64,000 nucleotides of DNA from Escherichia phage vB-Eco-KMB43. The notes under the pieces were generated by a model, which worked only from the letters and a program-made list of their open reading frames with translations, was not told where the DNA came from and ran no database searches. The stretch is taken from the sequence record OR525698.1; one strand, given 5' to 3'. Numbering within the stretch: the first letter of the stretch is position 1; each line of letters opens with the position of its first letter. Of this stretch, positions 9,201 through 55,082 are shown piece by piece. Made by a program: the position numbers and the translations under genes.

Positions 9201-9350
9201 AGCGAACGAAGATTTGCAATGAGTCCACTGTTTGACCAGTCGGCGGTAACATTCTCTATGTTCCGTGAACTTGTAGATAAAAGGTTGAAGGATAATATAG
9301 GGAATCCACGCGATCCGAAGAATCCGACACAGAGGAAAATTAATGGCTAA
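6264..9350 (+). CDS. gp7: baseplate wedge protein gp7
   Basis: 1028 aa; size and position match T4 gp7 (~1032 aa). Confidence 0.7.
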   Translation: MIKAPSVTSLTIEKLSANQAYITWDDVGENFFYFVELAETRTRDGEIIPVDELSWVNLGYTADQNWFEDKNLFPEYYYKFRVAVAAEGFEQSKWIETEEFQTFKTNAYNFSMMREFNLANEFIKEKFTYDNREYVKFNTDLIQASLMKEDFVFSPEYANMTNISNYIVVDENFHEIQDHIEKVCIDINRTMLAEMNGVLYLFERFQPIVKVSNDKGQSWKAYKAFNDRVGNPVSRTCVYQSKTTTYVLGYDRIFYGRQASDTRWSADDVRFSDDTITFAKVGDENDLGFDVEVFGVFSRLTGDTTKYAEAMACSDDYLWVGAKDVIRRIRLKNTPVDTVQGSPTFGEKIFDPDVIRVTGNDKAVIQKMDVIDGKLLVFVTGEVKQRYQDPTKPENVVPSDDAGVYLIGSDGLSFQRVFGNTPQEREYIQHGFSNMSTNGDEVFISHYNHHFESILPDPETAEKYELGEAVKYSQEPTYLTDKKIHQTTFRASYDDLRIWELGPQAYYNEADYTWMRRNGVRVWITNDNRPLVVYPEVIYTQEVDTSGILDKNRINREVYDKGTVTCYLNNVKFEGFKQYASGVMFHKNTGEIIGFYQFNYRVRDQVGVYWKPTNVAFVAELQNQVREVPWVPVHYDREQDPDLRPLLNKMTPDSFLLENENFRKFSEYYLQFLSDGSGTYYNKLKNLIKNKYPREQDAYEYLWSEMNKRNIYADKNKRDAVVRFFESRKSDFYSTKGVEASYKFLFKLLYNEDVEIEVESQAGLEYDIVVSSTNIDEDIVGRTIYTTTGRANVTYLEREYEGGRLRWRVTIHNLIGRFEEGQVIKSEKTAFEGMILVGVRGKELLSSSIDYINRSRSQYTMKIKSALPVSRYANDVMRFVHPVGFGFIGVTLLTMFINSGLSMKHTETIIQSLKNYKFDSGLPSVYPDRVADLDVDGNIKIDPLTGKPLYLTSPTIGEEFPVPPEYDQENSELFHGLKASERRFAMSPLFDQSAVTFSMFRELVDKRLKDNIGNPRDPKNPTQRKING

Positions 9351-10338
9351 TGAAAATAGTGTGATCTATCGCTCAATCATTACTAGCAAATTCAGAACAG
9401 AAAAACTTCTGAACTTCTATAATTCTGTAGGCGATGGAGCAAATCAAATTACAATTTATGGAACGTTTGGACGTTCGGAGCCGTGGTCAGAAAACGAAAA
9501 AGAGGTGGGCTTTGCCCCACCTTATCCGACCGATTCAACGGCTGGTGTTGTTGACATGTGGACCCATATGATGGGGGCGGTTAAGATTAACAAATCACTT
9601 CTTGATGCGGTTATCCCTCGTAAAGATTGGGGTGATACCGGACAGGATAACCCGCGCACGTTCTTTATCAATGACATTGTTGTCGTAAACTCAGCACCAT
9701 ATAACCGTACAGATGTTGGTAGCGGCTGGATGGTTTACCGTGTAACTGATGTTCCTGATCGCGGTTACTGCTCGATTTCAAGCATTGACGCTAAAGTAGA
9801 GTGTTTGAAGTTGGGCGGAAAGTGGACACCTACCCATGAATCAATTGCGCCACCTGTAGGAAAGGGCGATTCTATTGATATGGGTGATGGGTATCGTTGG
9901 GAATATCTGTACACAATTCCGCCTGATGCGGCGATCAACCGTTGCACCAATGAACATATTGTTGTACCGTTCCCCGATGAACTGCGACAAGATCCGGCGC
10001 GTTGGGGCTATGACAATGTGATCACCTGGTATAATGACTATAATCTGCTTTATCGGCTGAAAGTAGTAACTTTGCGTTTTCAGGCTTATATGGACTCTGC
10101 GCAATTCCCAACTACCGCGTTAGTGGGTAATACTGGTTTCCGTCAGTTAAGCATTATCCTTAACCCATTGGAAAAGAAAGCACGCCCTAGCGATCCAGAC
10201 GTTAAAGCGGTTAAATATAAGTACCGACCGCAAGACTTAGAGCCACACTCAGGAGAAATGATCTACATGGAAAACCGACAACCTATCGTTCGGTCATTAG
10301 ACCAAACAGAACTTGTTTCTGTATTGTTTGAGTTCTAA
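9343..10338 (+). CDS. gp8: baseplate wedge protein gp8
   Basis: 331 aa; size and position match T4 gp8 (334 aa). Confidence 0.7.
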   Translation: MANENSVIYRSIITSKFRTEKLLNFYNSVGDGANQITIYGTFGRSEPWSENEKEVGFAPPYPTDSTAGVVDMWTHMMGAVKINKSLLDAVIPRKDWGDTGQDNPRTFFINDIVVVNSAPYNRTDVGSGWMVYRVTDVPDRGYCSISSIDAKVECLKLGGKWTPTHESIAPPVGKGDSIDMGDGYRWEYLYTIPPDAAINRCTNEHIVVPFPDELRQDPARWGYDNVITWYNDYNLLYRLKVVTLRFQAYMDSAQFPTTALVGNTGFRQLSIILNPLEKKARPSDPDVKAVKYKYRPQDLEPHSGEMIYMENRQPIVRSLDQTELVSVLFEF

Positions 10339-10350
10339 GTGTATGATTTT

Positions 10351-10385
10351 AAAAGCCAATTCGAGAGAGTTGGCTTTTTCCATTT
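10351..10385 (+). terminator. rho-independent terminator after gene 8
   Basis: perfect inverted repeat AAAAGCCAA...TTGGCTTTT followed by T-rich tract. Confidence 0.6.
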
Positions 10386-10391
10386 TTGGTG

Positions 10392-10420
10392 TTGACAATA
10401 TTATTTGGTAAGGTATAATG
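10392..10420 (+). promoter_or_regulatory. sigma70-type (early-like) promoter
   Basis: TTGACA (10392-10397), 17-bp spacer, TATAAT (10415-10420); GGAGGA Shine-Dalgarno before ATG 10449. Confidence 0.6.
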
Positions 10421-10448
10421 CTCACATCTAAACAACGGAGGATAAATT

Positions 10449-10706
10449 ATGGCACGTCGTAAATTTACAGATAATTGTGAAGCAATTCAGGTATCCCCTT
10501 GCGGTTGGTATGTGATCGCGAACGGTGAAAAGATCGGAGAGATCATCGATCATACTCATTCATCACTAGCCGATTACACCGATGAACTATGGGAGGGTAT
10601 CAACTTCATGAATGACACTAAACGATTCAAGACTATCGACGAAGCTATCTATTTTGTGTATAATCCAACTTTCGGTATGTGGGGAACTAGAAAATGGCAC
10701 GCGTAA
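10449..10706 (+). CDS. hypothetical small protein (85 aa)
   Basis: ORF with strong SD (GGAGGA) downstream of a consensus promoter. Confidence 0.45.
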   Translation: MARRKFTDNCEAIQVSPCGWYVIANGEKIGEIIDHTHSSLADYTDELWEGINFMNDTKRFKTIDEAIYFVYNPTFGMWGTRKWHA

Positions 10707-11023
10707 ATATTAAACTGCATTATACAATGGGTAAACCAAAACATCCAATGCATAAAGTGTTTTGGGGCTTGCATCTTCAAGAAAAATGGCATGATAACTA
10801 TTGGTTTTGTGACCATGATAAGAAGTGGCATTCTCAAGATGAAGTTAATGCGATGATGGAACATGGTATAAAATTTAATTACTCTAATTATGACCATAGC
10901 ATTACTTGTATTCGAAAATTGAAACGGTTTATTCGAAAGAATCCGCAATTTAAAAACTTTGTGTTCTTTATGTCTCATGTTTATTTGGGGCATAGCGTTA
11001 CCGTAACAGCAAAGGTTAAATAA
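10694..11023 (+). CDS. hypothetical His/Trp-rich protein (109 aa)
   Basis: ORF overlapping neighbours; begins ATGGCACG like both flanking ORFs. Confidence 0.4.
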   Translation: MARVNIKLHYTMGKPKHPMHKVFWGLHLQEKWHDNYWFCDHDKKWHSQDEVNAMMEHGIKFNYSNYDHSITCIRKLKRFIRKNPQFKNFVFFMSHVYLGHSVTVTAKVK

Positions 11024-11862
11024 TGGCACGACTTTCTAAACAAGAGCAAAAATTACACGATCGGGCGATGGAGCTAATCAATTCAGATCGCCCATTGACC
11101 TATGAAGAAAAAGAATTTTGCTATAACAACTATCATGGCGATGGGCTAGGTGGTTCCGGTGCATTCTTTACCCCAGAAGGGCTTGCCTGGGATTTTACCA
11201 TTGATGCACACTGCACCGGAAAAGTATTGGACCTTTGTGCTGGGATCGGTCGTTTATCTTTTTGTATGTTGCATCGCTGTAAGCCAGAAAAGATCGTATG
11301 CGTCGAACTCAATCCAGAATTTGCGAGGATTGGCAAGCGACTATTACCGGAGGCAGAATGGATCACCAGCGATGTATTCGAATTTGAGTCAAACGAGAAA
11401 TTCGATGTTGTAATTAGCAATCCACCTTTCGGGAAAATCAATACAACCGACACAAAGGATGTATTTGAGTACACTGGCGGCGAATTTGAATTTAAGGTTA
11501 TGACATTAGGCCAGAAGTTTGCCGATGTAGGTTATTTTATTGTTCCTACTGGTTCCGCTGGTTTTGCCTATTCCGGTAGACCTTATTATGATGGATCAGT
11601 GAAGTCTAATAAATATCTAAAATGGAGCAAACAAACTGGTTTGGTGACTTATGCCGGATGTGGGATCGATACATCAATCTATCGCGATGAATGGCACAGT
11701 ACCAACGTTTTAACAGAAGTGGTTGAGGTTCGGTATTACGAGAAAGAAGCCGTAGAAGCGCCTAAATCGCGTCCTAACGAACAAATAGAAGAAAGTAAGG
11801 AGATTACCTTACCGGAACAAGAAACAGCGTCTGGGACGCTCTCAGACTTGTTTGACATTTAA
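11023..11862 (+). CDS. SAM-dependent N6-adenine (gamma-class, M.TaqI-like) methyltransferase
   Basis: motif order GAFFTPEGLAWDF (motif X), VLDLCAGIGRLS (motif I), VISNPPFG (motif IV NPPF/Y). Confidence 0.65.
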   Translation: MARLSKQEQKLHDRAMELINSDRPLTYEEKEFCYNNYHGDGLGGSGAFFTPEGLAWDFTIDAHCTGKVLDLCAGIGRLSFCMLHRCKPEKIVCVELNPEFARIGKRLLPEAEWITSDVFEFESNEKFDVVISNPPFGKINTTDTKDVFEYTGGEFEFKVMTLGQKFADVGYFIVPTGSAGFAYSGRPYYDGSVKSNKYLKWSKQTGLVTYAGCGIDTSIYRDEWHSTNVLTEVVEVRYYEKEAVEAPKSRPNEQIEESKEITLPEQETASGTLSDLFDI

Positions 11863-11867
11863 TTATA

Positions 11868-11892
11868 AGCCGTCCTCGTGGGCGGCTTTTTT
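11868..11892 (+). terminator. rho-independent terminator after methyltransferase gene
   Basis: AGCCGTCC..GGGCGGCT hairpin followed by TTTTTT. Confidence 0.55.
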
Positions 11893-11902
11893 GTATGTAT
11901 TT

Positions 11903-11910
11903 TATAAATA
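11903..11910 (+). promoter_or_regulatory. late promoter TATAAATA upstream of gene 9
   Basis: exact TATAAATA about 28 nt upstream of ATG 11938. Confidence 0.5.
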
Positions 11911-11937
11911 ATACATCATAACATGAGGAATTAAACA

Positions 11938-12792
11938 ATGGCACAAGTTCCAAAGAAAAGAATAGACACAGGTACGGTCGGCAATCCATCGACTGGCGAT
12001 ATCTTATATGATGGCGGTAATAAAATTAACGATAACTTTGATTCAATATATGACGCATTTGCTGATCAACGTCTAAAAGAGATTGATCATGGTGCTGGTC
12101 GAATGATTATTCATGCCACGGGATACTATCAGAAACACCCACGACAAAGCTATGCAGGATCGGCGGTAGAGATTGGTAGCTTACATGATATTGACACAAC
12201 TCAAGGCGCATTAATAGCAATTCTTCCTAAAGCTAAAGTTGGTGAGGGTGTTGTGTTCATAAATAGTAACGGTAGCTTTTCGGCAACAACACCACTAAAC
12301 ATTAGAACTCAAGCAGGAGATTCTATTAGCGGGTATTCCGGTGACGCGGTAATAACTCAACCTTTCTCAAAAGTCACCGTCTGGTGTACTGCCGTCGAAG
12401 GTAGTAGAGTTACCTGGCGGCTGGGCATCGAAAGTATGTTTACCGACACAACCACACCACTAGATAGGACAGTTAATGTAACTGGAGTTGCAACCAACGT
12501 TGCTATTGCAGCAAAAACAGAATATGTATCAATTAAACTATTAACAACCGCTAGCAATACGACGGGTTCAAAAATGCGCTCAAGCGAAACTCTATTGATG
12601 ATTGATGCCAGAGCCGGAAAAGTTTACGCGACAGAATATGCGGTTTTACAGAAAACAGAAGACGAATTATACACGGTTCGTTATTTCATTGGTTCCGGCG
12701 ATAAAGTATATGCAGAGTATAAGGCTACTGGCGAAAATATTCGTTTAGCAGTTAAAGCCACAGACACTATTAAAATCGGGGTTGCTACATGA
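11938..12792 (+). CDS. gp9: baseplate wedge / long-tail-fibre socket protein gp9
   Basis: 284 aa; size and position match T4 gp9 (288 aa). Confidence 0.7.
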   Translation: MAQVPKKRIDTGTVGNPSTGDILYDGGNKINDNFDSIYDAFADQRLKEIDHGAGRMIIHATGYYQKHPRQSYAGSAVEIGSLHDIDTTQGALIAILPKAKVGEGVVFINSNGSFSATTPLNIRTQAGDSISGYSGDAVITQPFSKVTVWCTAVEGSRVTWRLGIESMFTDTTTPLDRTVNVTGVATNVAIAAKTEYVSIKLLTTASNTTGSKMRSSETLLMIDARAGKVYATEYAVLQKTEDELYTVRYFIGSGDKVYAEYKATGENIRLAVKATDTIKIGVAT

Positions 12793-16651: not shown

Positions 16652-18420
16652 TGATCGAACAATTAAACATTCGAAAGATCCCTAACGTCGATGGTGTCCC
16701 TGGAGAGGGACAACATTCTATTAGCTGGATTAAAAATGGTGAATGTCTAAGCGCAGCAACCACAGAAACAGGACACGAGGGGACGCTTAACCGCGCCCCT
16801 TATGCGATTCAAGAAAATATTGTTCGTTTGGATGAAAATTCTAAGACAACGGTAACAAAAGTTAACGAAGTTGTTACAGCAGTTAATGATATTAAAACTA
16901 CTTTAGGCGCGGTTGCTGATGGTAGTATTATTGATATTGTCAATCAAACTATTGCAAAGGTTGAGTCTGTAGAAGAAAATTTAGGAGAAACTTCAAGGAC
17001 ATTACAAACCACAGTAGATGAACTGGCGGAGACAGGAAAGAAAATTGGTGTTCGTCCGGCAGCAGATCCGAGTACACGAACAATATATGATGATATTTCT
17101 TTCATCAAACAAGAATTGGGCGCTTTCCCTAACTTCAATATCAACGGTTATCCAGATCCAGGTAGTTCCGGTTCCGGTATCAAATATCGAGTTATCCAGA
17201 ATACGGAAGCATTAAACAACCACGGTCAGCGAATCCGCCAACTAGAAAACGACTGGCAAGATTCTGACGTTGGAGAGCTAACAGAACAAGTTAACAAAAT
17301 GCGAAGCGAGCTAGGAGACACATCACTAGCAACACAGGACAATGTTTATCTTCGTCTTCGCACAAACACTCGCAATATCGCTAGTATATCAAACGAAGTT
17401 CAGGAAGTAAAGAAAGCGATTCTATTTGAATCAATTCCCGATATCGGGACTAAAGTAACTAAGCTACAATCTGATTATACACAGCTTAATGATGAAGTCA
17501 ACGGCTTTGACGCTGGTATCCGTCCTCGTTTAACTCTTCTGGAAAATAAGATCGGCAATCCTCAAGCCGCTGGAAGTATTGATTATCGATTGACCAATCA
17601 AGAACTGGAATTTGTAGATCTTAAATCTATTGTCGGTGTCAGTGGTGCTGATGGCCTACGTGGTGAGGTTGCACGAATCTCTAACACAGTTGGTACTGAC
17701 AGTGAGCGTCATACTATCGCAGGTCGTCTAAAAATTGTAGAAAACACACAGGGACGACTAGAAGCTAGCGTACAGGATATCGAGCAAATGATCGGCGATC
17801 GAGATTCCGGTCTAACCGCCGGGGTTATTAAGCTGTCAAGCGACATGTACGGCAATCCAGAAGGAAGCACGCAGCTTGAACAAGATGGGATCGTGAAAAC
17901 TGTTAAGGAATTGAGCACATCAAATGCAAGCAAGGTAACAGACGTTCCTGATGATGGTTTCCATTATCTACGTAAGCACGGGGAATGGGTTCAGGTCGCA
18001 TGGGCGGCTGGTGCATTTAAAAACACCGCTCAGATTGATATTACTCTCGACGGACAAGATCAATACAAAGGAATCCCGCTAAACGATATGACCGAAGAAG
18101 TTCCTGCGCGTGGAATGGTTAAGAGCGAATCTCTTGTTACGGTTAACGACAAAGGCTTATTCCGTTGTGTTTTCCGTTGTTCTGTAAATGCGGCACATAA
18201 CGCTACTTTCGTAGTCGGTATTGCTAAAAATGGTCAGATTGTACATGAGGTACGACATGGTCATTATGGAACTGATGATTTAATTAGCTATTCTACCAGT
18301 GCTTTCCTAAATATTGAAAAGGGCGACCGGATCGATATTCGCATTAAGGGCGTATCCGAAGAAGCATTAGCGCAACAGCTACAAATTAAAGAGTTCCTCT
18401 TTGGGATTTCTCCGGTATAA
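16651..18420 (+). CDS. wac: fibritin (whisker) Wac-like with C-terminal extension
   Basis: 589 aa; coiled-coil-like segmented sequence; foldon-like segment DGFHYLRKHGEWVQV followed by ~150 extra residues. Confidence 0.55.
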   Translation: MIEQLNIRKIPNVDGVPGEGQHSISWIKNGECLSAATTETGHEGTLNRAPYAIQENIVRLDENSKTTVTKVNEVVTAVNDIKTTLGAVADGSIIDIVNQTIAKVESVEENLGETSRTLQTTVDELAETGKKIGVRPAADPSTRTIYDDISFIKQELGAFPNFNINGYPDPGSSGSGIKYRVIQNTEALNNHGQRIRQLENDWQDSDVGELTEQVNKMRSELGDTSLATQDNVYLRLRTNTRNIASISNEVQEVKKAILFESIPDIGTKVTKLQSDYTQLNDEVNGFDAGIRPRLTLLENKIGNPQAAGSIDYRLTNQELEFVDLKSIVGVSGADGLRGEVARISNTVGTDSERHTIAGRLKIVENTQGRLEASVQDIEQMIGDRDSGLTAGVIKLSSDMYGNPEGSTQLEQDGIVKTVKELSTSNASKVTDVPDDGFHYLRKHGEWVQVAWAAGAFKNTAQIDITLDGQDQYKGIPLNDMTEEVPARGMVKSESLVTVNDKGLFRCVFRCSVNAAHNATFVVGIAKNGQIVHEVRHGHYGTDDLISYSTSAFLNIEKGDRIDIRIKGVSEEALAQQLQIKEFLFGISPV

Positions 18421-32091: not shown

Positions 32092-32130
32092 GTTTATTTT
32101 TGGAATCCTTTGGATTCCTTTTTCTTTTTG

Positions 32131-32138
32131 TATAAATA
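32131..32138 (+). promoter_or_regulatory. late promoter TATAAATA upstream of gene 24
   Basis: exact TATAAATA about 38 nt upstream of ATG 32176. Confidence 0.5.
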
Positions 32139-32175
32139 TGATATATCCATTAAGGCAAATACAGGATTCATAAAC

Positions 32176-33417
32176 ATGACTCATATTTTTACTGAACTGT
32201 TGCGGGAATCTACTTCCTCAGTAGCTAACCAGACAGCGCGACCGCAACTATTATCATTAACTCGCGCGGTAAACAACCTGATTTTCTCTGATCTGGTAGC
32301 AATCCAGCCAACGGATCAACCAGTATCTGCATTGTACGGCCTACGTTATCTTAATCATGATGGTCAGATGACTTTCCGAACTGCTGCAACCTACGGTGGT
32401 GCGGTTGGTGATCGCACAGAGATTGAAGAGTTTTCAAAAGAAAAATCTTATGACGAAGGCGCACTATTCAAATCAGGCGATGTTGTATACGAAGTTGTGA
32501 CCGCTGGTACAGTCGGTGAAGATGCCGAAACTCCAGAAGCTGCGATCTTTAAAGGCGTAATGACAAACAAAATTCGTTTCTATAGCGATTGTGCATCGGT
32601 AGAATACTTTGAAGATAAAAACACCGAAATTGCGTCTACCTCTATGCAGTTTGACAAGTGGCAAGTTAATGTAGGTTCTCGTAAACTGAAAACCTCGTTC
32701 ACCACTGAATTAATGCAGGATCTTGAGGCAAGCCAAATCAACTCTGAAAACTCTGTAATTGATCTTCTGGCTACTGTTGCTTCAGAAGAGATCAACAAAG
32801 ATATTATTCAGAAGTTGATCACTGTATCATCTCGCTATAAAATTAAAGGGATCACCCCTGATGGCGTACTTTCTCTCGTTAGCGTTCAGGATGCACCAAC
32901 ACAAGCGCGTGAACTTTACCGCTATGCTTGCGAGATGAGCAATCAAATGTTGCGGACTTCCTCCTTTGCTGGTACATACGTTTTGGCGTCTTCTCGCGTG
33001 GTTGGCCTCCTGCAATCTTCCGGTTGGATGGAAGAAACCGACAATGCTCTAAGCGAAGGTCGTCTACGTTGCGGTCTGGAAGTGTACGCAGACACGACAA
33101 CACCTTTCGATTATATGCTCGTTGGTTGTAAGCACATGATCGGTGATATGGAGAGTGTCGGTTCTCTGTTCTACTCCCCATATACAGAAGCCGACGGCGC
33201 TGGCGCGTATAAGAGCGTAATTGACCCTAATAGCTTCCAGCATCATGTAGCTATTATGAATCGTTATTCACTCTCTGTCAACCCATATACATCAAAAGTT
33301 GATCAGGAAGAACACCAGGTCATCAAGGGTGACGATTGGGGTAAAATGGCTGGACGTTCAGAAATGTCCTACATTTTAGGAATCGAACTGCCACCGCTTG
33401 AGATTGACAACGCTTAA
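32176..33417 (+). CDS. gp24: head vertex protein gp24
   Basis: in-frame ATG 32176 (MTHIFTELL) downstream of the late promoter; the ORF-track start at 32110 would place the promoter inside the gene; gp23-paralogue position. Confidence 0.8.
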   Translation: MTHIFTELLRESTSSVANQTARPQLLSLTRAVNNLIFSDLVAIQPTDQPVSALYGLRYLNHDGQMTFRTAATYGGAVGDRTEIEEFSKEKSYDEGALFKSGDVVYEVVTAGTVGEDAETPEAAIFKGVMTNKIRFYSDCASVEYFEDKNTEIASTSMQFDKWQVNVGSRKLKTSFTTELMQDLEASQINSENSVIDLLATVASEEINKDIIQKLITVSSRYKIKGITPDGVLSLVSVQDAPTQARELYRYACEMSNQMLRTSSFAGTYVLASSRVVGLLQSSGWMEETDNALSEGRLRCGLEVYADTTTPFDYMLVGCKHMIGDMESVGSLFYSPYTEADGAGAYKSVIDPNSFQHHVAIMNRYSLSVNPYTSKVDQEEHQVIKGDDWGKMAGRSEMSYILGIELPPLEIDNA

Positions 33418-34005
33418 CTAAATATCTAACCAAGACAAGTCAGATCCGCCCAAGATTTTTTCGACGGCGGATCTATTTTCTTGATGATATAAGTTAAAAC
33501 ATGGTATCCCATGTCTACGGGCAACATAAACAGCAATTCTAGTTCCTCCCGAAACGATTCCATTAACTTCTTTCGCCCAAAATATCACACAATCTACCGG
33601 ATCATCAAGTGTCTCACCTAAGACTTGAGCAACATTTCTAGAAAACAGATTTTGCATGTATAACGGTATAGAACGAGGATTATCATAAACATGTTCTAAT
33701 TCATCCATCGCCAGATTTTTTTGTTCTAAGGTTTGCCATGCAATCACATCATGACCGTTATGCTTGTGGTCATAAAACTTCCAATTTGGAATGAAAATTT
33801 TTCTATAATCTGGATCGTAATACTTCATGAAAGCATTGTCCATACCGTAAGCCCCTCCAGAATGCGCTACAACGCGATTTTCTGACAATACCCTCCCAAT
33901 GGTACTAGCCATTATCAAAATGTCGCTAGGCGCTTTTCTAGAGCCGATTAAAGCACATCTACGAAGTGGTTTTACTCCAAATAGATCTTGTAACTGGTCA
34001 AACAT
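33418..34005 (-). CDS. DprA/Smf-like (SLOG-type Rossmann) domain protein
   Basis: 195 aa; motifs LIGSRKAP, HSGGAYGMD, LFSRNVAQVLG, SGGTRIAVYVARRHGIP matching the DprA core pattern GSR / SG.A.G.D / RNR / SGS..TA. Confidence 0.45.
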   Translation of the reverse strand: MFDQLQDLFGVKPLRRCALIGSRKAPSDILIMASTIGRVLSENRVVAHSGGAYGMDNAFMKYYDPDYRKIFIPNWKFYDHKHNGHDVIAWQTLEQKNLAMDELEHVYDNPRSIPLYMQNLFSRNVAQVLGETLDDPVDCVIFWAKEVNGIVSGGTRIAVYVARRHGIPCFNLYHQENRSAVEKILGGSDLSWLDI

Positions 34006-34158
34006 AATATTTCCTCCATAGAAAGCAATATCATACTACAAGTTAATAACAAATACAAGTATCCGCGTAGCGGAAGCGAGCACAGCGAGCATTAAAAACA
34101 CTTCCAGTAATTGATTAATAAATGTTCGAAACAAATTTTTATTATTTTATAAGATAAG

Positions 34159-34329
34159 TCTTCGTTTTGATCATAATTTAAACATACATGTAAAACTACA
34201 CAAAAGGATATCGCTTCGCGAACTCCTACGGAGTATAACATTTGTGTTACAATATGTAGTGATTAATAATTAACCAAAGATACATTTTCTATGTTCTAAA
34301 GATCTTTCTTCGTTTTGATCATAATTTAA
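34159..34329. repeat. pair of direct repeats (23-bp core TCTTCGTTTTGATCATAATTTAA at 34159-34181 and 34307-34329) in AT-rich non-coding region
   Basis: two identical 23-mers plus shared downstream CATGTAAA(A)CT about 148 bp apart. Confidence 0.6.
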
Positions 34330-34385
34330 TCAAACAGTATTAATATTGTGCACATGTAAACTAAAATTATGTTAATAATAGATAC

Positions 34386-34410
34386 AAAAAAGCCGCCCAG
34401 AAGGACGGCT
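34386..34410 (-). terminator. rho-independent terminator (minus strand)
   Basis: AGCCGCCCAGAAGGACGGCT hairpin with T-run on the minus strand, just downstream of the ORF ending at 34419. Confidence 0.6.
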
Positions 34411-34418
34411 AATGTTAA

Positions 34419-34856
34419 TTATTTGTTGATAACGATCTGATTTCGGCGAATGGTAACATTACTCTTAGAGATGATCAGATCATCCGGCACTACGTTAGTT
34501 TTGTATGGTTGGAATCGAACAAGCATCTGATTGCGTTTAGACCCTTCCTTAATCTTGATTTCCATCTGGATATTGTTGCCTACGTGAGCAACCGCAATTT
34601 CACCTTTATTCTCATAGACCCACTTGCTGGTAACGTCTCCAGCAAAAGCCTTAATAACTTGCAATGCTTCGTCGTATGCGGTAGAGCTGTGAACTTTCAG
34701 AAGGCCAGCCGTAGCAAGACGGGAGCAGGTGATCGCCGGAGATTGCCAAACATCAACATTAATTTGCTCAATCATAGTAACACCGCCCTGATCAACTGCT
34801 TTGAATGCTTCGAACATTGCCTTTTTCATTGCTACGTGGTTTTTACGGAATTTCAT
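34419..34856 (-). CDS. hypothetical protein (145 aa)
   Basis: ORF in the 24.x position; no recognised motifs. Confidence 0.4.
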   Translation of the reverse strand: MKFRKNHVAMKKAMFEAFKAVDQGGVTMIEQINVDVWQSPAITCSRLATAGLLKVHSSTAYDEALQVIKAFAGDVTSKWVYENKGEIAVAHVGNNIQMEIKIKEGSKRNQMLVRFQPYKTNVVPDDLIISKSNVTIRRNQIVINK

Positions 34857-34902
34857 AATTATTCACCTCTATTGATTAGTTATTCAGAATATTAATTACA
34901 AA

Positions 34903-35178
34903 TTAGGACATTGCCCGTTTGAATGCGTCCATTATAACAGTGTTATTTGGCTTGTCAACACGTTTTTGAACTTTATTTTTAAATTTTTTGTTGATGTGGT
35001 GTTTACGATAAACAACCTTTTCACGGCTGGCGTAAGCCTCGCGTGCATCTTTTACCATCAACCATTCCTTAGCCGCATCTTGTCCGCTGATCCCGCCAAT
35101 CTTCTTAGCAATATCAACAAAATTAAGACCGTGGTCTTCGCGTAGCATGTAAACCATTAACGCTGTTTTCTTGTCCAT
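34903..35178 (-). CDS. hypothetical basic protein (about 91 aa from ATG 35178; alternative start 35286)
   Basis: ATG overlapping the stop of the upstream ORF (TGATG coupling); basic C-terminus. Confidence 0.35.
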   Translation of the reverse strand: MDKKTALMVYMLREDHGLNFVDIAKKIGGISGQDAAKEWLMVKDAREAYASREKVVYRKHHINKKFKNKVQKRVDKPNNTVIMDAFKRAMS

Positions 35179-35375
35179 CACTTCGCCCCATTGACGATTA
35201 ACAGGATAGTGATCAGTACCGGAAACTGGATCATGACAGTACCAAAAAACCGGATAAACGCATTTTCCGACTTCCACACATGACATGCGACTAGCTGATA
35301 GACCATTGTTGCAACCAAAGCCAGAAAATACATCTCGATTGGTGCTTCTTTGATCAATCGTACAACCTCATTCAT
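35178..35375 (-). CDS. small hydrophobic (membrane) protein, 65 aa
   Basis: strong SD GAGGTGA 5 nt upstream of ATG 35375; two hydrophobic stretches. Confidence 0.4.
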   Translation of the reverse strand: MNEVVRLIKEAPIEMYFLALVATMVYQLVACHVWKSENAFIRFFGTVMIQFPVLITILLIVNGAK

Positions 35376-35569
35376 ACTTCACCTCATACATTCATAAACA
35401 CAACAACGAATAGGACAGTAACAGTTATTAAAGCCATTTTCAACCCCATATTCATAATATTTTCCTCATAGGGTAACGCCCTGTCGATGCGTGCCATTAT
35501 AGGCATCTAAATCGCTCTGTCAAGCACAAAAACAAAAAAGCCACCCCGAAGGATGGCTGATAGATTTCA

Positions 35570-36784
35570 TTAAGCAGGATGCGTTTCACGAATGCGTAGA
35601 ACTCGCTCTAACGTCTCTCGGTCCAGTTTATGTAACTTTTTGGACTGATACATGAAACCATTGCGAGATTCCATGCAAGTGCAATCACTATATTTTTCTT
35701 CCGCTGCCGCGATTGTCTCCAGATCTTTGGCGTACTTGCTGGTTGAATAAACTTCTCGGTTACGCCACTCTAACCCAGCCTCATTGAATTTAACAATCTC
35801 GTCAAATACCCACCATCCAATGTAGATAAATGAAGTTTTGCGCCACGGGATCGGGTGTACGTAACGAAACATTTTAACAACTTCCATTGAACATTTTCTA
35901 CTTGTACTTGTTGCAACTTCTACTGTTTCATCTTCGATCTGTTGATATAGTTTAGCAACACACCAGAATTTGGCTGTGTCATCGTAAGTAGCACTCTCTT
36001 TGAACAGATGACCGTCTGGCATGATAGAAAATCCTTCCTGTGCTTCGCCGACCTCACTACCGATCAGAGTCGGTGACAGTTGCCCTTCGCGCTGCAAATA
36101 CCAGTTATATTTGATCGTCAATTCAGGCATACCGCTAGAATCGCCTACAATGTTCTCTGACACAACATAATTAAGTAAGATCTCATTACCTAGTGCCACG
36201 GTCTTTGATTCCACCACATCCTGATCTACGTTCATTGTTGCCAGCATGATTTTAGTCGATGCGCTAGCGGCTGAATCTTCCGACTCACCCCACACTTTTA
36301 CAGTATACACGCCGTTTTTATCTGCTGTAAATTTTTGGATCGTAATATCCTGTGTTGTGTCTATAACGTCTTCGCCCTTACTCCAACTATAATGTAGTTC
36401 ATAGTTGTCTGCTGGAGTATTCCCACCAGAAAATTTTACTGTTGCATGTAATTCTACGTCTGTTTGTGATGATACGTAGAAATGCTGCGGTTCGGTGATA
36501 TTTACGATTAATTCAGCTTCTTCCATGAGGAAAACTTCAGATTCTACTGATTCCGTCGTATCGGTATCTTGTACCGTTACTTTATAGCTACCCGCATTTT
36601 CACTTGTTGCACCTACTACAGATAGCGTAGCTGTGCTATTTTCATGTGGTTGGTCGTCTTTTGTCCATGTATATGTCAAATTGCTGGGTAATGGTTCGTC
36701 ACCCGCTACAGTCGCCGTTAAGGTGAAACCATCTCCAGCAAGAAAACATCTTTTGTCAGATTTAATTGATACTGTGAAAGTCAT
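35570..36784 (-). CDS. hoc: Hoc-like outer capsid decoration protein with Ig-like domains
   Basis: 404 aa; repeated Ig-like segments (LTYTWTKDD..., GSYKVTV, YTVKVWG); hoc position upstream of inh on the minus strand. Confidence 0.6.
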   Translation of the reverse strand: MTFTVSIKSDKRCFLAGDGFTLTATVAGDEPLPSNLTYTWTKDDQPHENSTATLSVVGATSENAGSYKVTVQDTDTTESVESEVFLMEEAELIVNITEPQHFYVSSQTDVELHATVKFSGGNTPADNYELHYSWSKGEDVIDTTQDITIQKFTADKNGVYTVKVWGESEDSAASASTKIMLATMNVDQDVVESKTVALGNEILLNYVVSENIVGDSSGMPELTIKYNWYLQREGQLSPTLIGSEVGEAQEGFSIMPDGHLFKESATYDDTAKFWCVAKLYQQIEDETVEVATSTSRKCSMEVVKMFRYVHPIPWRKTSFIYIGWWVFDEIVKFNEAGLEWRNREVYSTSKYAKDLETIAAAEEKYSDCTCMESRNGFMYQSKKLHKLDRETLERVLRIRETHPA

Positions 36785-51174: not shown

Positions 51175-51245
51175 TTGATACTCCTTAGTAGTTCGTTTCG
51201 GTATGGGTGTATTATGATATACACCCTCTGTTATGTCAACAACTT
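51175..51245 (-). promoter_or_regulatory. promoter/5'UTR cassette copy 1 (PeSL-like)
   Basis: minus-strand TTGACA (plus 51234-51239), 17-bp spacer, CATAAT, conserved UTR ...ACACCCATACCGAAACGA..AAGGAG. Confidence 0.6.
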
Positions 51246-51425
51246 TTAGAACATTTTTGAAATCAATTCTGCTTTGATTTCGCAGAGAACATCTAAAGAT
51301 TTCTCGTCACCTGCTTTTGCTGCTTCTGCTTGCATTTTTGAAATGGCTTCAATGTCGGTGCAATTATAAGCCGCTTGAACTTTAGCGATTGCGATGATTG
51401 CCGATTCGATGGTTAAGTGTTTCAT
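51246..51425 (-). CDS. hypothetical small protein (59 aa)
   Basis: ATG 51425 directly downstream of cassette copy 2; not in ORF track. Confidence 0.4.
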   Translation of the reverse strand: MKHLTIESAIIAIAKVQAAYNCTDIEAISKMQAEAAKAGDEKSLDVLCEIKAELISKMF

Positions 51426-51495
51426 GTTTGATTCCCCTTTCGTTTCGGTATGTGTGTATTATAGGGGATCACCGATCCCCCTGTCAACAACTTTT
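51426..51495 (-). promoter_or_regulatory. promoter/5'UTR cassette copy 2 (PeSL-like)
   Basis: TTGACA (plus 51482-51487), palindromic spacer GGGGGATCGGTGATCCCC, TATAAT, conserved UTR. Confidence 0.65.
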
Positions 51496-51498
51496 TAG

Positions 51499-52014
51499 TT
51501 ATTTTTTTAATTGCTCATCTTGCAATAGGGCAATCACATGCTGGCGATGTTCTTCCGATTGAGGCACACCGAAAAAGTTTGTTTTGTAGAAATACTCTAA
51601 TCGGTCTTCTCGTGTGCTCTCTTCCATCATGATCGCGGGTAGTCCGAGATTTCGGAAACGTCGCTTTTCTGCTGGCGTAAAATCACTGTAATACAACATA
51701 GAATCATCATTACCAGCAATGCTAAACTCATCCTTCATAAAGGAGAATATTGCGTTTAAACGCTGTTTACCGTCCACGATTTCGATCTCATAGCGAGAGC
51801 CATCATCAATCTTAGCCATTGCGATAGCACCGACCGGAAAATCATTAATCAGGTTTTCGATAAACATACGTTTGTTTTCGGTGTCCCATACCAAAGGACG
51901 CTGATAATCTGGGTTCATGTTGATATAGCCATCTTCTAACCATGCTTCGTAAACAGAGATGACAAAGTTTTTAGTATTGGTATAGTAACGGCGTTTAGGC
52001 GTTAAACGGTTCAT
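51499..52014 (-). CDS. DUF262 / ParB-like nuclease-domain protein
   Basis: motifs DYQRPLVW and VDGKQR; ATG 52014 with AGGAGA SD, 1 nt after the upstream stop; ORF-track alternative start 52050. Confidence 0.55.
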   Translation of the reverse strand: MNRLTPKRRYYTNTKNFVISVYEAWLEDGYINMNPDYQRPLVWDTENKRMFIENLINDFPVGAIAMAKIDDGSRYEIEIVDGKQRLNAIFSFMKDEFSIAGNDDSMLYYSDFTPAEKRRFRNLGLPAIMMEESTREDRLEYFYKTNFFGVPQSEEHRQHVIALLQDEQLKK

Positions 52015-52015
52015 G

Positions 52016-52348
52016 TTATAGTCTCCTGAATGGATCATCACGTAAATCAATATCTTTTAAGAACTCATCCCATGAATGGCGGATATTGTTCTTAATTCTC
52101 CAGATAAGCGCAGGGATTGAACGCTCTCCCATCTGGAAGTATGGATCATATGATCCGTATGCCCAATATGCTACTACAATTCCACAATCAGCGCAATAGT
52201 ATTCTATTTCACTTGCTGGCGACCAAAGTCCATCAATATGATCGGTGATCTTGCTTTCGATGTTATGGCTATGACAATCAGGGCAACGGATGCAATGACC
52301 TTGTTTATCGTAATTTGACGTTAGCGAATACTTAAACAATCTCATCAT
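52016..52348 (-). CDS. zinc-ribbon protein (two CxxC pairs)
   Basis: 110 aa; CIRCPDC ... CADCG; start overlaps upstream stop (ATGA). Confidence 0.45.
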   Translation of the reverse strand: MMRLFKYSLTSNYDKQGHCIRCPDCHSHNIESKITDHIDGLWSPASEIEYYCADCGIVVAYWAYGSYDPYFQMGERSIPALIWRIKNNIRHSWDEFLKDIDLRDDPFRRL

Positions 52349-53061
52349 AGATCCTTATTTGCTTCAAATACTGCCTTTGCGAATCCTCGCGGGGTAAGTG
52401 ACCTGATAGTCTTTGTTTTCGTTCCTTTCCCGCCTAGCTTAGAATGCTGTTTACTGTACCCTTTATTAATCTGCAAAGGTTTCTTTTCTGGCATTATAAA
52501 GCCTTGTCCGGTCCATAAGCAAGTCTTTTTCGGGTACATATCACGGGCGGCGATATACTCAGGAAAAGTAGGATGTTTATCATCTTCCGGCAAATAACCG
52601 CCATATTCCCACGGATGGAACATATAATCAGGCTTACGCCACATGCTAGAGATAACGCTTACAGGATTCTCTATCATGTAGGGAACTCCTAGCCATTCAC
52701 CCAAATAAGCGGTTATTTTAGCTGCCCGTACATCATGAACTTGAATCAATGGTCCTTGCTCTCGTTTCTTTCGTTCAAAGTGTGCAGCGCCACTAACAGC
52801 TAAATTGGTGCACGGTGGGAATGCAAAGATAATATCCGGTTTCCCCCATTCAAGGTCCATTGCTCTTTCCAGCCAGTTCAAATCAATCCAGGTGTTTACA
52901 TAGGTAATGTTTGGATGTTCAAATCTGGTATTATACTTTTTGTATGTACCGTGGTCGGCGTCATCCGCATTAAAGCAGACTACCTTATGACCTGCTTTAG
53001 CCCATTCTAGCCCCATTATCCCCGATCCGTCAAAGTTACAGAATATTAATTTTTGTTTCAT
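52345..53061 (-). CDS. C5-cytosine methyltransferase-fold protein (atypical PCT motif)
   Basis: 238 aa; motif I-like FCNFDGSGIMG, motif IV-like DIIFAFPPCTNLAVSGA, motif VI-like MIENP; no obvious target-recognition domain. Confidence 0.5.
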   Translation of the reverse strand: MKQKLIFCNFDGSGIMGLEWAKAGHKVVCFNADDADHGTYKKYNTRFEHPNITYVNTWIDLNWLERAMDLEWGKPDIIFAFPPCTNLAVSGAAHFERKKREQGPLIQVHDVRAAKITAYLGEWLGVPYMIENPVSVISSMWRKPDYMFHPWEYGGYLPEDDKHPTFPEYIAARDMYPKKTCLWTGQGFIMPEKKPLQINKGYSKQHSKLGGKGTKTKTIRSLTPRGFAKAVFEANKDL

Positions 53062-53303
53062 ATACGCCCCTTTAATCCAACACAGATTTTAGAAGGTTCT
53101 TTGCCGTGCCACATTAAGTAAAGTCCATTAATGCGGCCTTGTTTTGTATATGATTCTTTTCTGATCTTCTTATAGTGTCGTGCTTCCTCAGCCGATTGTT
53201 TAGAATACCAATCATAAAGGAAGAGGCACAAAGGCCAACCATTAGCGGCCTTAATGCAGTTATTAAGAAATTCCTTATTGCGTTTAATTAATTTTCTTTT
53301 CAC
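53058..53303 (-). CDS. hypothetical basic protein (81 aa)
   Basis: ORF with overlapping start/stop in the operon. Confidence 0.4.
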   Translation of the reverse strand: MKRKLIKRNKEFLNNCIKAANGWPLCLFLYDWYSKQSAEEARHYKKIRKESYTKQGRINGLYLMWHGKEPSKICVGLKGRI

Positions 53304-53551
53304 GCTGCCCCCATTGGTTTGATAGTAACAGAATCTAAAAGACCTTTGTTAGCCAGTTCGCGGCAAGTTTTCAGATCCGCAACTTCCCAGCCAGCCGCAA
53401 TCAGGTTATCGATGAGGCTGTTAGCAACTTCTTCGCTCATGAAAGAGCACTGTTTGCCGATGGTGTAGCGTACACGCTGTAATTTCAGTTTACGGAAGCC
53501 TTTAACGTTCAGGTCTTTAGCGATTTTCTTTGCGGTTTCGATGTTAGCCAT
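53300..53551 (-). CDS. hypothetical protein (83 aa), first gene of the operon
   Basis: ATG directly downstream of cassette copy 3 (AGGAGAATCAAACAATG). Confidence 0.45.
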   Translation of the reverse strand: MANIETAKKIAKDLNVKGFRKLKLQRVRYTIGKQCSFMSEEVANSLIDNLIAAGWEVADLKTCRELANKGLLDSVTIKPMGAA

Positions 53552-53628
53552 TGTTTGATTCTCCTAAGTGGTATCTAGTCTTGATGGTTGTATTGTAGGG
53601 GAGTTATCCTCCCCTGTCAACACTTTTT
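53552..53628 (-). promoter_or_regulatory. promoter/5'UTR cassette copy 3 (PeSL-like)
   Basis: TTGACA (plus 53615-53620), palindromic spacer GGGGAGGATAACTCCCC, TACAAT, conserved UTR. Confidence 0.6.
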
Positions 53629-53634
53629 ATAAAA

Positions 53635-53802
53635 TTATTTGTTAATTTCCGGTGCGTTGCTAGGATAGTAACCTTCTTTAACTCCGAGGTATTTCGCAAC
53701 CATCCCTACAATCTTCTGTGCTACTACAATGTCAAATTTCAGATAATCTTCGCCGTGGGTTTCAATGATATATGCTTCACATGCTGCTTTAGTCTCGAAC
53801 AT
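53635..53802 (-). CDS. hypothetical small protein (55 aa), paralogue of 57256-57423
   Basis: ATG after cassette copy 4; about 87% amino-acid identity to the second copy. Confidence 0.5.
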   Translation of the reverse strand: MFETKAACEAYIIETHGEDYLKFDIVVAQKIVGMVAKYLGVKEGYYPSNAPEINK

Positions 53803-53873
53803 TTTGATTCTCCTATTTCGTTTCGGTATGTGTGTATTATAGGGGATCTCCCGATCCCCGTCAACAACTTTTT
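53803..53873 (-). promoter_or_regulatory. promoter/5'UTR cassette copy 4 (PeSL-like)
   Basis: TTGACG (plus 53860-53865), palindromic spacer GGGATCGGGAGATCCCC, TATAAT. Confidence 0.6.
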
Positions 53874-53880
53874 TTTAAAA

Positions 53881-54162
53881 TTATTCGTGATTAGTTTCGA
53901 TGTTGTGCATTTTGCACCAGTTCAGCCAATCACCCAGATCCTGATAGTTAATGCTTTTATCTGCTGCCATCGTTTTTGTCTTGATACCCATATGTGCGTT
54001 ATGAGTAAGCATTTTTACAGTGAACTCAATTTTATCACCTTTAGCTTTAACATCAACCAGTTTGGTCCACTGGCTACCAGCGCCGCGAATGTTCATACCA
54101 ACGATGTTTCCGATGTATGCTTCTTTGTTTTTCAGGATTTCGGTTGCTTTGATGAATTTCAT
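53881..54162 (-). CDS. hypothetical protein (93 aa)
   Basis: ORF downstream of cassette copy 5. Confidence 0.45.
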   Translation of the reverse strand: MKFIKATEILKNKEAYIGNIVGMNIRGAGSQWTKLVDVKAKGDKIEFTVKMLTHNAHMGIKTKTMAADKSINYQDLGDWLNWCKMHNIETNHE

Positions 54163-54232
54163 TTTTGATTCTCCAGTTCGTTTCGGTATGTGTGTATTAT
54201 GCTATTTTCTTACTTTGGTGTCAACAACTTTT
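54163..54232 (-). promoter_or_regulatory. promoter/5'UTR cassette copy 5 (PeSL-like)
   Basis: TTGACA (plus 54219-54224), CATAAT, conserved UTR. Confidence 0.55.
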
Positions 54233-54233
54233 T

Positions 54234-54503
54234 TTAGATATTTTCAGAAATAAATTTTAAAACTTGACGTAAATGTTTCTCATCTTTGATAGTCGCCGGA
54301 AGTTCTTCTTTTACTTCCTGTGCAAGATAGATATTTCCGTTCCAAGTGAAAGATCCGTCTTCGTTTACGCGATAGCTGAACATCCACTCGCAATCATTTT
54401 CGATTTCATATACACACAGAAGAGTGTAATCTTCAAAGCTATTGATTTCAAGGTCGAAGCCGTGACGTTTTGCAAAGTTGGTAGTGGTTTTAGTCAGTGC
54501 CAT
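54234..54503 (-). CDS. hypothetical protein (89 aa)
   Basis: ORF downstream of cassette copy 6. Confidence 0.45.
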   Translation of the reverse strand: MALTKTTTNFAKRHGFDLEINSFEDYTLLCVYEIENDCEWMFSYRVNEDGSFTWNGNIYLAQEVKEELPATIKDEKHLRQVLKFISENI

Positions 54504-54580
54504 TGTTTGATTCTCCTAAGTGGTATCTCGTCTTGATGGGTGTATTATGCTATAGGCGTGATCTGGTGTCAATGCTTTTT
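54504..54580 (-). promoter_or_regulatory. promoter/5'UTR cassette copy 6 (PeSL-like)
   Basis: TTGACA (plus 54567-54572), 17-bp spacer, CATAAT. Confidence 0.55.
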
Positions 54581-54820
54581 TTAATTTTATGCAATAAAAA
54601 GACGACACTAAGGTCGGCACATTTTAAAAATTCTTGCCATATATGCAAGCCTCATAATCTAGAGGATGACCGCCAATCCTACCCGGCTTAATATTCCAAC
54701 CGCATCGATATTTGCTGACCATGCTAACAGTTTCGGTTCTTAGAGCATTTTCTTTGCAAATCATACCCCATAAATTCTTTTCTATAAGGACAGTCCGCTT
54801 TGCAAGTTGGCGGTTCTACG

Positions 54821-55012
54821 TCATTTAGCGGGTCGGAAGCAGTTGGCTTTATTATCAATTCTTTGTTTGCAATAATCATAAGCACATCCCATTGAAGACA
54901 ATTTAACATCTTCGCAATAAGTGTTGAATCCGTCAAACACGGTCACTTCGTATTTGACTCCATCAGCGATAGCTTTTACTTTATACCATCCATGCTTGTA
55001 TAAAATCTTCAT
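54821..55012 (-). CDS. hypothetical Cys-rich protein (63 aa)
   Basis: ATG directly downstream of cassette copy 7; overlapped out of frame by ORF 54724-54936. Confidence 0.4.
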   Translation of the reverse strand: MKILYKHGWYKVKAIADGVKYEVTVFDGFNTYCEDVKLSSMGCAYDYCKQRIDNKANCFRPAK

Positions 55013-55082
55013 CTTTATTTCCTCAATCTCGTTTCGATGGGTGTATTATGCTATAGGCTAGACCAGGTTGTCAACAACTTTT
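55013..55082 (-). promoter_or_regulatory. promoter/5'UTR cassette copy 7 (PeSL-like)
   Basis: TTGACA (plus 55069-55074), CATAAT, conserved UTR. Confidence 0.55.

Follow-up and report, generated by a model that had tools for sequence, protein, structure and literature searches.

What is an early-type gene island doing among the late baseplate genes of a T4-like phage, and on what substrate would the methyltransferase that it encodes act? The question is raised by a stretch of 64,000 nucleotides from Escherichia phage vB-Eco-KMB43 (sequence record OR525698.1), hereafter the window, whose source phage belongs to Krischvirus (RB49-like, 'pseudo-T-even' coliphages). Between genes 8 and 9 of this phage lie three open reading frames (ORFs)—ORF1, ORF2 and the gene for a putative orphan N6-adenine methyltransferase. 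An earlier reading of the DNA letters alone (the original prediction) had drawn attention to the island and its enzyme; the feature that it overlooked, and the most informative one, is a C-terminus resembling the clamp-binding tail of the phage DNA polymerase gp43. From sequence and by analogy with known systems, we judge it probable that the protein is an early orphan DNA adenine methyltransferase tethered to the replication fork, which would take DNA as its substrate, yield N6-methyladenine (m6A), bind the sliding clamp and benefit the phage.

The methyltransferase tail and the sliding clamp

The methyltransferase ends in ETASGTLSDLFDI and gp43 of RB49 in EKVASLTDLFDI, both read up to the stop codon; over the last eight residues (TLSDLFDI and SLTDLFDI, respectively) six are identical and the rest are S/T swaps. 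In 57 Krischvirus records the tail of gp43 does not vary, and it aligns with the orthologous terminus of T4 gp43, EEKASLDFLFG. In the T4 family, a C-terminal hydrophobic and acidic peptide constitutes the epitope for the gp45 sliding clamp, interchangeable among gp43, gp33 and gp55, and in gp55 a variable, unstructured linker leads up to the clamp peptide (Geiduschek and Kassavetis 2010, PMC2988020). The methyltransferase displays both traits of a gp45 client: a flexible, poorly conserved linker that varies in length and sequence, with a predicted local distance difference test score (pLDDT) below 50 at residues 245-273, and a hydrophobic and acidic C-terminal peptide resembling that of the cognate gp43. 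When the protein is aligned with its relative P0002 (68-70% identical overall), ~37% of the linker residues are identical by a count from the alignment, as are nine of the last 10 residues. Moreover, the methyltransferase tail is nearer to the gp43 tail than are those of the known clients gp55 (SLDQFYEIEN in RB49) and gp33 (NTLDI). The C-terminal pattern L-x(1-2)-[LMF]-[FY]-x(0-4) was then sought at the ends of ORFs in the 64-kb window and in ~89 kb of RB49; the only real genes that have it are those of gp43, gp55 and the methyltransferase. Nothing speaks for a recent, large exchange with the 3' end of gene 43: only the last five codons and the stop are alike (17/18 nucleotides), the upstream codons and downstream flanks of the two genes being unrelated. 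We propose that TLSDLFDI copies the clamp-binding tail of gp43, and that it would bind the clamp physically. As a side observation on the known clients, the annotated gp33 of RB49 (17696-17965) ends in EPTNTLDI, a shorter and weaker clamp tail than those of gp43, gp55 and the methyltransferase.

With a shared peptide of just eight residues, and orphan methyltransferases being common in phages, the enzyme might also be pictured as diffusing freely—an anti-restriction moron whose likeness to gp43 is coincidental or functionless. We hold this explanation to be unlikely. That any of ~275 proteins should match gp43 at six or more of eight positions, counted from the C-terminus, has a chance of ~3e-4 (a rough estimate), and conservation of the tail contrasts with divergence of the linker. 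Further evidence bearing on it came from the wider family. Among 1.84 billion representative proteins, 730 relatives were found, the best 150 of which were analysed; 144 of these had the full core, and 94 of the 144 carried tails of at least 10 residues. The motif Q-x(1-2)-[LMIF]-F occurs within the last 12 residues of 32/94 tails, against 0.67 in shuffled tails (maximum 5 over 1000 shuffles), and the strict beta-clamp pattern Q-[LMIVAF]-x-[LMF]-F in 21/94, against 0.08 expected. Typical endings—QLSLFDAA, EQLTLF, QLALF and QLDLFGG—fit the Dalrymple consensus QL[SD]LF, and QLDLF is the highest-affinity beta-clamp consensus (PMC11139829). The family has two forms: copies at prophage edges end at the core, and those of lytic T4-like phages add an acidic linker and a conserved terminal peptide (Table 1). 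Lambdoid phages with O/P replication genes use the host beta clamp. The tail type follows the clamp that each phage uses: QLDLF in the lambdoid copy, and in T4-like phages DLF or NLF endings that are similar to those of the cognate gp43. This tracking, together with a roughly 50-fold enrichment of clamp motifs at the C-termini of the family, argues against a coincidental likeness; the tail-less members in Aeromonas phage AS-zj and at the edges of Citrobacter and Enterobacter prophages speak for a core that works without a tail, as a freely diffusing enzyme would.

Table 1. C-terminal tails across the methyltransferase family, read up to the stop codon, and the sliding clamp in use
Phage or element	Clamp	Methyltransferase tail	gp43 tail
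Window / RB49 (Krischvirus)	own gp45	SGTLSDLFDI	ASLTDLFDI
Matisse (Slopekvirus)	own gp45	SDLFTFTIE	SLNDLFGDW
RB16 (Pseudotevenvirus)	own gp45	QNLFTFTIE	SLNTLFGDDW
L021 (T4-like)	own gp45	GNFTFVIE	SLNDLFGDDW
L019 (lambdoid; O, P, NinB neighbours)	host beta	EEQQLDLFGEAA	not applicable
Aeromonas phage AS-zj		none	
Citrobacter / Enterobacter prophage-edge copies		none	

Two groups of family members deserve mention in their own right. In the lambdoid phage contig L019 (SRR18336524), the gene (10001-10768) stands in the nin region, just after O and P; within the ending of its product, EEQQLDLFGEAA, stands QLDLF, the pentapeptide optimal for binding the E. coli beta clamp. In Citrobacter and Enterobacter chromosomes (L003-L009), tail-less copies with 54-55% identity close off prophages or islands as their last gene, next to host genes, in a moron-like position; one Citrobacter freundii tail-less sequence is present on 887 contigs.

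A clamp-binding tail could also serve a different end, acting as a competitor or regulator of replication versus gp45-dependent late transcription, or as a block on the host clamp, with methylation being secondary. Indeed, gp43, gp33 and gp55 are competitors for shared sites on gp45 (PMC2988020), and overproduced clamp binders such as MuC disturb clamp-dependent processes. Nothing points to inhibition in the present case, however, and the invariance of the catalytic motifs across the family indicates selection on methyltransferase activity, which leads us to rate such a role as very improbable. That the family forms an unrecognised class of sliding-clamp clients, in which the core would carry a tail matching the replicating clamp (gp43-like for gp45 in T4-like phages, QL[SD]LF for host beta in lambdoid and other phages) so that methylation of nascent phage DNA is coupled to the fork, seems to us slightly better than an even proposition.

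The catalytic core and its substrate

The catalytic Rossmann domain occupies residues 1-244. The protein belongs to phrog_3820, a phage 'DNA methyltransferase' family (E = 4.3e-117, residues 1-250 against profile positions 1-246/255), and the characteristic motifs X, I and IV are located in Table 2. General families matched weakly (MTS 1e-9, Eco57I 2e-6; N6_Mtase below the cut-off), and searches of PDB sequences, Pfam and NCBIfam gave only weak matches over motifs I-IV, below cut-offs. The AlphaFold2 model (pLDDT 83) consists of a seven-stranded Rossmann fold extending to about residue 237, the disordered residues 245-273 and a short terminal helix; the fold is a class I Rossmann fold, nearest to adenine-N6 enzymes. 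A gamma-like motif order and adenine-N6 chemistry, as predicted from sequence and model, are thereby supported. No target-recognition domain follows the catalytic domain C-terminally, where only the disordered tail is found after residue ~237, and no S-subunit gene lies nearby. A restriction endonuclease partner is likewise missing among the neighbours—gp8, gp9, and ORF1 and ORF2, which have zero Pfam, NCBIfam or PADLOC matches—and the methyltransferase is therefore an orphan. As for the original prediction, the three proteins it had called (two small ones and a methyltransferase of 279 amino acids, the former now counted at 85 and 109) and the orphan status of the enzyme were confirmed; its 'M.TaqI-like' label holds for the motif order and catalytic fold, but not for a TaqI-type C-terminal recognition domain.

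The catalytic domain alone leaves DNA versus RNA as the substrate unsettled. An RNA or protein methyltransferase—be it an rRNA/tRNA adenine/guanine amino-methyltransferase or a release-factor/ribosomal-protein glutamine methyltransferase—could in principle reprogramme host translation early in infection. We consider this improbable on several grounds. Matches to such enzymes lie far below curated cut-offs and cover motifs I-IV only: the NCBIfam equivalogs PrmC/HemK, RsmC and L3 glutamine methyltransferase scored 37.5 vs 199, 29.2 vs 295 and 28.7 vs 230 bits, respectively. The DNA methyltransferase profiles of PADLOC (mad2 at 5e-17, Type II methyltransferases) span motif X as well, matching from residue 35-46 with FFTP included. 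Furthermore, the gene lies within the replication clusters of RB16, Matisse and the T4-like phage L021, between the primase/61.1 genes and helicase gene 41, and beside O/P in the lambdoid phage. Finally, clamp-binding peptides fit only DNA-tracking enzymes; because they are sensible only for proteins that work on DNA, the tail provides the strongest argument available for a DNA substrate. The labels 'release-factor glutamine methyltransferase' and 'rRNA guanine-N2 methyltransferase' that some records carry were rejected in view of the same sub-cut-off matches.

Besides this enzyme, RB49 encodes a T4-type Dam homologue (NC_005066, 39922-40734), and Krischvirus thus has two predicted adenine methyltransferases.

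The gene 8/9 island as an early-gene cassette

In the interval 10351-11910, between gp8 and gp9, a terminator, a sigma70 promoter, the three ORFs, a second terminator and a late promoter follow one another (Table 2). The region 9343-12792 is 99.9% identical to phages FL04 and LF73P4 and 92.7-98% identical, over its full length, to 56 further Krischvirus records; the island was found in 58/58 records. Deeper relatives from metagenomes (L012, L013 and L014) also carry methyltransferases, ~65% identical, at the gp8/gp9 junction, and retain the order of terminator, early promoter, methyltransferase, terminator and TATAAATA. Upstream of the gene, no small ORFs occur in L012 and L013, and one unrelated ORF of 154 amino acids is present in L014. 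Since the relatives keep the methyltransferase and vary the ORFs upstream of it, the former appears as a stable resident of the 8/9 junction and the latter as exchangeable. The island is fixed in Krischvirus and is not a recent insert. It is also already known: the RB49 record of 2003 lists it as ORF140w-143w, with ORF143w marked as methyltransferase-like (likewise Nolan et al. 2006), and the GEC-3S record annotates the promoter and both terminators. In view of these databases and the literature on comparable cassettes, the island and its putative methyltransferase are ordinary. An Rfam scan of 9800-12400 returned nothing near gathering scores, and the base-composition profile has only a mild AT-rich dip, over ORF2.

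Table 2. Features of the gene 8/9 region (positions in the window; aa, amino-acid residues; nt, nucleotides; bp, base pairs)
Feature	Position	Strand	Evidence or remark
gp8 baseplate wedge subunit, upstream late gene	9343-10338	+	Pfam PF09215 Phage-Gp8 7e-143; phrog_977
Intrinsic terminator closing the gene 6-7-8 late transcript; stem-loop half of the PeSL-type element	10351-10378	+	12-bp stem, T-run
Consensus sigma70 early promoter; promoter half of the PeSL	10392-10419	+	TTGACA-16-TATAAT, 12/12; -35 at 10392-10397, -10 at 10414-10419
Shine-Dalgarno GGAGG, 7 nt 5' of the ORF1 ATG	10437-10441	+	direct reading of sequence
ORF1, 85 aa, phrog_16603	10449-10706	+	ORF call
ORF2, 109 aa, phrog_12630; 13-nt overlap with ORF1	10694-11023	+	ORF call
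Orphan N6-adenine-type methyltransferase (putative), 279 aa, RB49ORF143w family, phrog_3820	11023-11862	+	start overlaps ORF2 stop (TAATG)
Motif X, FFTP, aa 48-51	11164-11175	+	invariant in 33 homologues
Motif I, LDLCAGIG, aa 69-76, S-adenosylmethionine-binding loop	11227-11250	+	L71, C72, A73, G74, I75, G76 invariant
Motif IV, NPPF, aa 133-136, catalytic amino-methyltransferase motif	11419-11430	+	N133, P134, F136 invariant; P135 at least 90%
Disordered acidic linker, aa 245-269	11755-11829	+	length and sequence vary in homologues; absent from prophage copies
C-terminal peptide SGTLSDLFDI, candidate gp45 clamp-binding motif	11830-11859	+	likeness to gp43 tail
Intrinsic terminator closing the early cassette	11867-11888	+	9-bp stem (6 GC pairs), T6
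T4-type late promoter TATAAATA for gene 9	11903-11910	+	motif scan
gp9 baseplate wedge / tail-fibre connector, downstream late gene	11938-12792	+	Pfam T4_gp9_10_N 6e-41; phrog_967

The regulatory elements of the island are those of a promoter-early stem-loop (PeSL), the combination of a terminator beside a strong sigma70 promoter ahead of non-core ORFs (Arbiol et al. 2010, PMC2839356). The upstream hairpin, 13 nucleotides from the -35 box, folds at -17.3 kcal/mol (z = -4.55) and the downstream one at -15.9 kcal/mol (z = -4.9), with 0/200 shuffles folding as well in either case; both are annotated in GEC-3S, and hairpins equivalent to the upstream one occur in T4, L012 and L014. In L012 and L014, too, a terminator plus promoter precedes the methyltransferase. 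Sigma70 sites that match the consensus at 12/12 positions number seven in the window, against ~0.08 expected on both strands by composition-based arithmetic, and all seven fit early-gene contexts, several of them on the minus strand at 51-59 kb or beside hoc. The late promoter TATAAATA stands 3' of the methyltransferase terminator in L012 and L014 too, and 3' of the gene 8 terminator in T4. There, the gene 8/9 spacer measures 63 bp and already holds a hairpin terminator and TATAAATA, so that the cassette sits exactly at a pre-existing transcription-unit boundary.

The sequence traits of a PeSL were found: a near-consensus intergenic promoter, an adjoining stable stem-loop, and non-core genes at a site of gene-content variation. 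By its sequence, the island is a PeSL-type early-gene cassette, and its elements are presumably active in this phage, as promoter and terminator activities have been measured for other PeSLs in phi1 and RB49 (PMC2839356). It shares with the PeSL cassettes of RB49, phi1 and T4-like phages (PMC2839356; Comeau et al. 2014, PMC4122927) the stem-loop, consensus promoter, Shine-Dalgarno sequence and non-core ORF, as well as a location in one of the 'few' positions within the virion module and a cargo that differs among relatives; its stem-loop 5' of the -35 box corresponds to one of the five PeSL subclasses described. The gene 8/9 locus and its methyltransferase are not mentioned in either of these two papers.

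Much of what the original prediction had said of this architecture stands. The junction of gp8 and gp9 does hold a 1.5-kb island with no counterpart in the T4 spacer; the bracketing terminators are borne out by two hairpins with T-runs and z-scores of about -4.6 and -4.9; and a late promoter sequence does lie upstream of the flanking gene 9. The promoter it had written as TTGACA-17-TATAAT at 10392-10420 is present with full consensus boxes, but the spacer is 16 nucleotides long and the element ends at 10419. The idea of an unusual insert, by contrast, was not sustained: the check that it had suggested, absence of the island from related genomes, comes out as predicted for T4 only, the island being fixed in Krischvirus and kept in the deeper relatives.

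The two small genes follow a history of their own. ORF1 is at least 90% identical within Krischvirus and ~69% identical in rV5-like Vequintavirus phages, where it stands beside an ORF2 homologue; it has no homologue in L012 or L014. The ORF2 family comprises five clusters only among 5.8 billion proteins, and the AlphaFold2 model of ORF2 is unusable (pLDDT 52). In Vequintavirus FV3 (JQ031132, 3256-3830), the homologues of ORF1 and ORF2 are adjacent, with ~69% identity and the same 13-nucleotide overlap. As the rV5-like phages that carry the pair are otherwise unrelated and lack the methyltransferase, the pair appears to be a mobile module shared between phage families; judged by its distribution, ORF1 plus ORF2 is a separate, evidently exchangeable two-gene unit. 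In addition, ORF2 contains a hypervariable patch (10725-10900), in which nucleotide identity between the phage and Phi1 falls to 53-78%, with ORF1 at ~100% and the methyltransferase at 82-100%, and at least three ORF2 alleles exist in Krischvirus (at least 95%, 86% and ~72% amino-acid identity). This pattern suggests allelic exchange or diversifying selection. In RB49 itself (AY343333, 2606-2852), a frameshift splits ORF1 into ORF140w and ORF141w; the gene is intact in a later RB49 record, OZ035808 (98.8% identity in one piece), and the frameshift is probably a sequencing error or a mutation of the laboratory stock.

The three ORFs are, as read from the sequence, translationally coupled by their overlaps, and they share the start context ATGGCACG. 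On the plus strand of the window this string occurs three times, in each case at a start codon of the island, against 0.6 expected, and GEC-3S and RB49 share this pattern. The common MAR... starts noted by the original prediction are accordingly real for all three genes, but the common origin it had offered for them is unsupported: the three proteins are unrelated, the ORF1 and ORF2 homologues of rV5-like phages start with MSLRK and MAHV, and MA[RK] is the conserved N-terminus throughout the methyltransferase family, whose deeper members start with ATGGCTAGA and ATGGCTAAA. A role for ATGGCACG as the mark of a recombination breakpoint is likewise unsupported, as the divergence between the window and Phi1 starts ~30 nucleotides inside ORF2 and stops well before the methyltransferase start. 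We read the shared string as an initiation context that may have been selected or homogenised locally. Two further copies lie on the minus strand; one of these, at 35497, is not the start of a long ORF and abuts the -10 box (TATAATGGCACG) of a PeSL-like promoter near hoc.

Other parts of the window contain early-type regions as well. A second block, on the minus strand at ~33418-35560, lies in the late head-gene region between a paralogue of the major head protein (32110-33417, presumably gp24) and hoc (35570-36784); it encodes a DprA-like protein and two further ORFs, is preceded by a hairpin and TTGACA-16-TATAAT (-35 box at 35523), and has a second 12/12 promoter at 34958. The remark that hoc is PeSL-associated (PMC2839356) agrees with this block. 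Additionally, the minus strand at ~51200-59100 contains at least 10 near-consensus sigma70 promoters, most of them preceded by AAAAAGTTG, in a hyperplastic early-gene region of small ORFs.

A fork-tethered methyltransferase and its known counterparts

The anatomy of the island, its conservation, the motifs, the fold class, the identity of the tail and the family-wide enrichment of clamp motifs are matters of observation, from which a course of events during infection can be sketched. Host sigma70 RNA polymerase would start at the consensus promoter right after infection, and the transcript would cover the three coupled ORFs and stop at the downstream hairpin. The upstream hairpin would in turn halt late transcripts of genes 6-8, with gene 9 being restarted from TATAAATA. 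Insulated from late baseplate transcription by the two terminators, the cassette would deliver the methyltransferase before or as replication begins. The enzyme might then dock by its tail on gp45 clamps at the forks, and on those left on nascent DNA, and add methyl groups to adenines of the new phage DNA at or just behind the fork—possibly to protect or mark newly made DNA that lacks the 5-hydroxymethylcytosine (hmC) pathway of the T-even phages. For Krischvirus, which is without that pathway, tethering could make such protection or marking of progeny DNA quick enough to keep up with rapid replication.

Several points weigh against this picture of a tethered DNA methyltransferase. The protein has no discrete target-recognition domain, which leaves its sequence specificity unexplained, and the phage already has a Dam homologue, so that no reason is apparent for it to carry a second adenine methyltransferase. 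Between the Slopekvirus and Pseudotevenvirus tails (LFTFTIE) and those of their gp43 proteins (LFGDW), the likeness is confined to a short core, DLF or NLF. Aeromonas phage AS-zj and all prophage-edge copies are tail-less, which implies that the enzyme can do without the tether. RB49 DNA is regarded as unmodified in some papers, with cytosine as the only base tested, and the literature searched yielded no adenine-methylation data for Krischvirus. The case for clamp binding, moreover, is one of sequence analogy only.

If the tethered enzyme is real, a DNA-modifying enzyme would join the short list of clients of T4 gp45 and the bacterial beta clamp, and it would become understandable how a phage with unmodified cytosines methylates its DNA at the speed of replication. 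The succession of catalytic core, disordered linker and clamp peptide would further provide a simple sequence rule by which phage genomes could be searched for DNA-modifying enzymes coupled to the fork. The restriction escape and DNA-modification status of Krischvirus phages, which are candidates for therapy, are being worked out (PMC13390438), and the methyltransferase bears on these candidates in phage-therapy genomics. The island itself is routine; the tail is the new point, and with it we propose a phage orphan DNA methyltransferase that would be tethered to the sliding clamp.

Set beside known enzymes of its chemistry, the protein stands somewhat apart. Gamma-class N6-adenine methyltransferases (M.TaqI, Eco57I, HsdM, MmeI) differ from this phage enzyme, which has no recognition domain or specificity subunit and consists of ~240 residues plus a tail, and its sequence similarity to the Eco57I and N6_Mtase families is weak, as the scores given above indicate. 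T4-type Dam is likewise a phage-encoded orphan adenine methyltransferase without a nuclease partner, yet it belongs to another class and another locus, and the C-terminus of RB49 Dam (VYVTNVD) contains no clamp-like motif, unlike the tail described here.

With the T4-family clients gp43, gp33 and gp55 (PMC2988020), the methyltransferase shares the C-terminal hydrophobic and acidic peptide behind a flexible linker. The gp45 clients named in that review are the polymerase, the clamp loader and the late-transcription factors, with no methyltransferase listed; the methyltransferase is placed beside them here by the sequence likeness of its tail. Bacterial beta-clamp clients carry QL[SD]LF (PMC11139829), and many distant family members end in QLSLF, QLDLF, QLTLF or QLALF, with the motif at the C-terminus as in Pol II and Pol IV, whereas the phage's own methyltransferase has a T4-type rather than a beta-type tail. 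The same 2024 review of the beta clamp includes no methyltransferase among its partners. MuC, the late activator of phage Mu, is an example of a phage protein able to use the clamp of its host (bioRxiv 10.1101/2025.01.04.631326). In the literature searched, coverage of which was incomplete and leaves novelty unproven, we came upon no phage or bacterial methyltransferase described as clamp-binding.

The closest parallel in concept comes from eukaryotes, and the phage enzyme would, if the tether holds, be its prokaryotic-virus counterpart. DNMT1 is recruited to PCNA through a PCNA-interacting peptide (PIP) box. It belongs to the unrelated C5-cytosine class, uses an unrelated motif and clamp and has a maintenance role; what the two systems would share, by analogy only, is the concept of a methyltransferase tethered to a sliding clamp and methylating nascent DNA at the fork.

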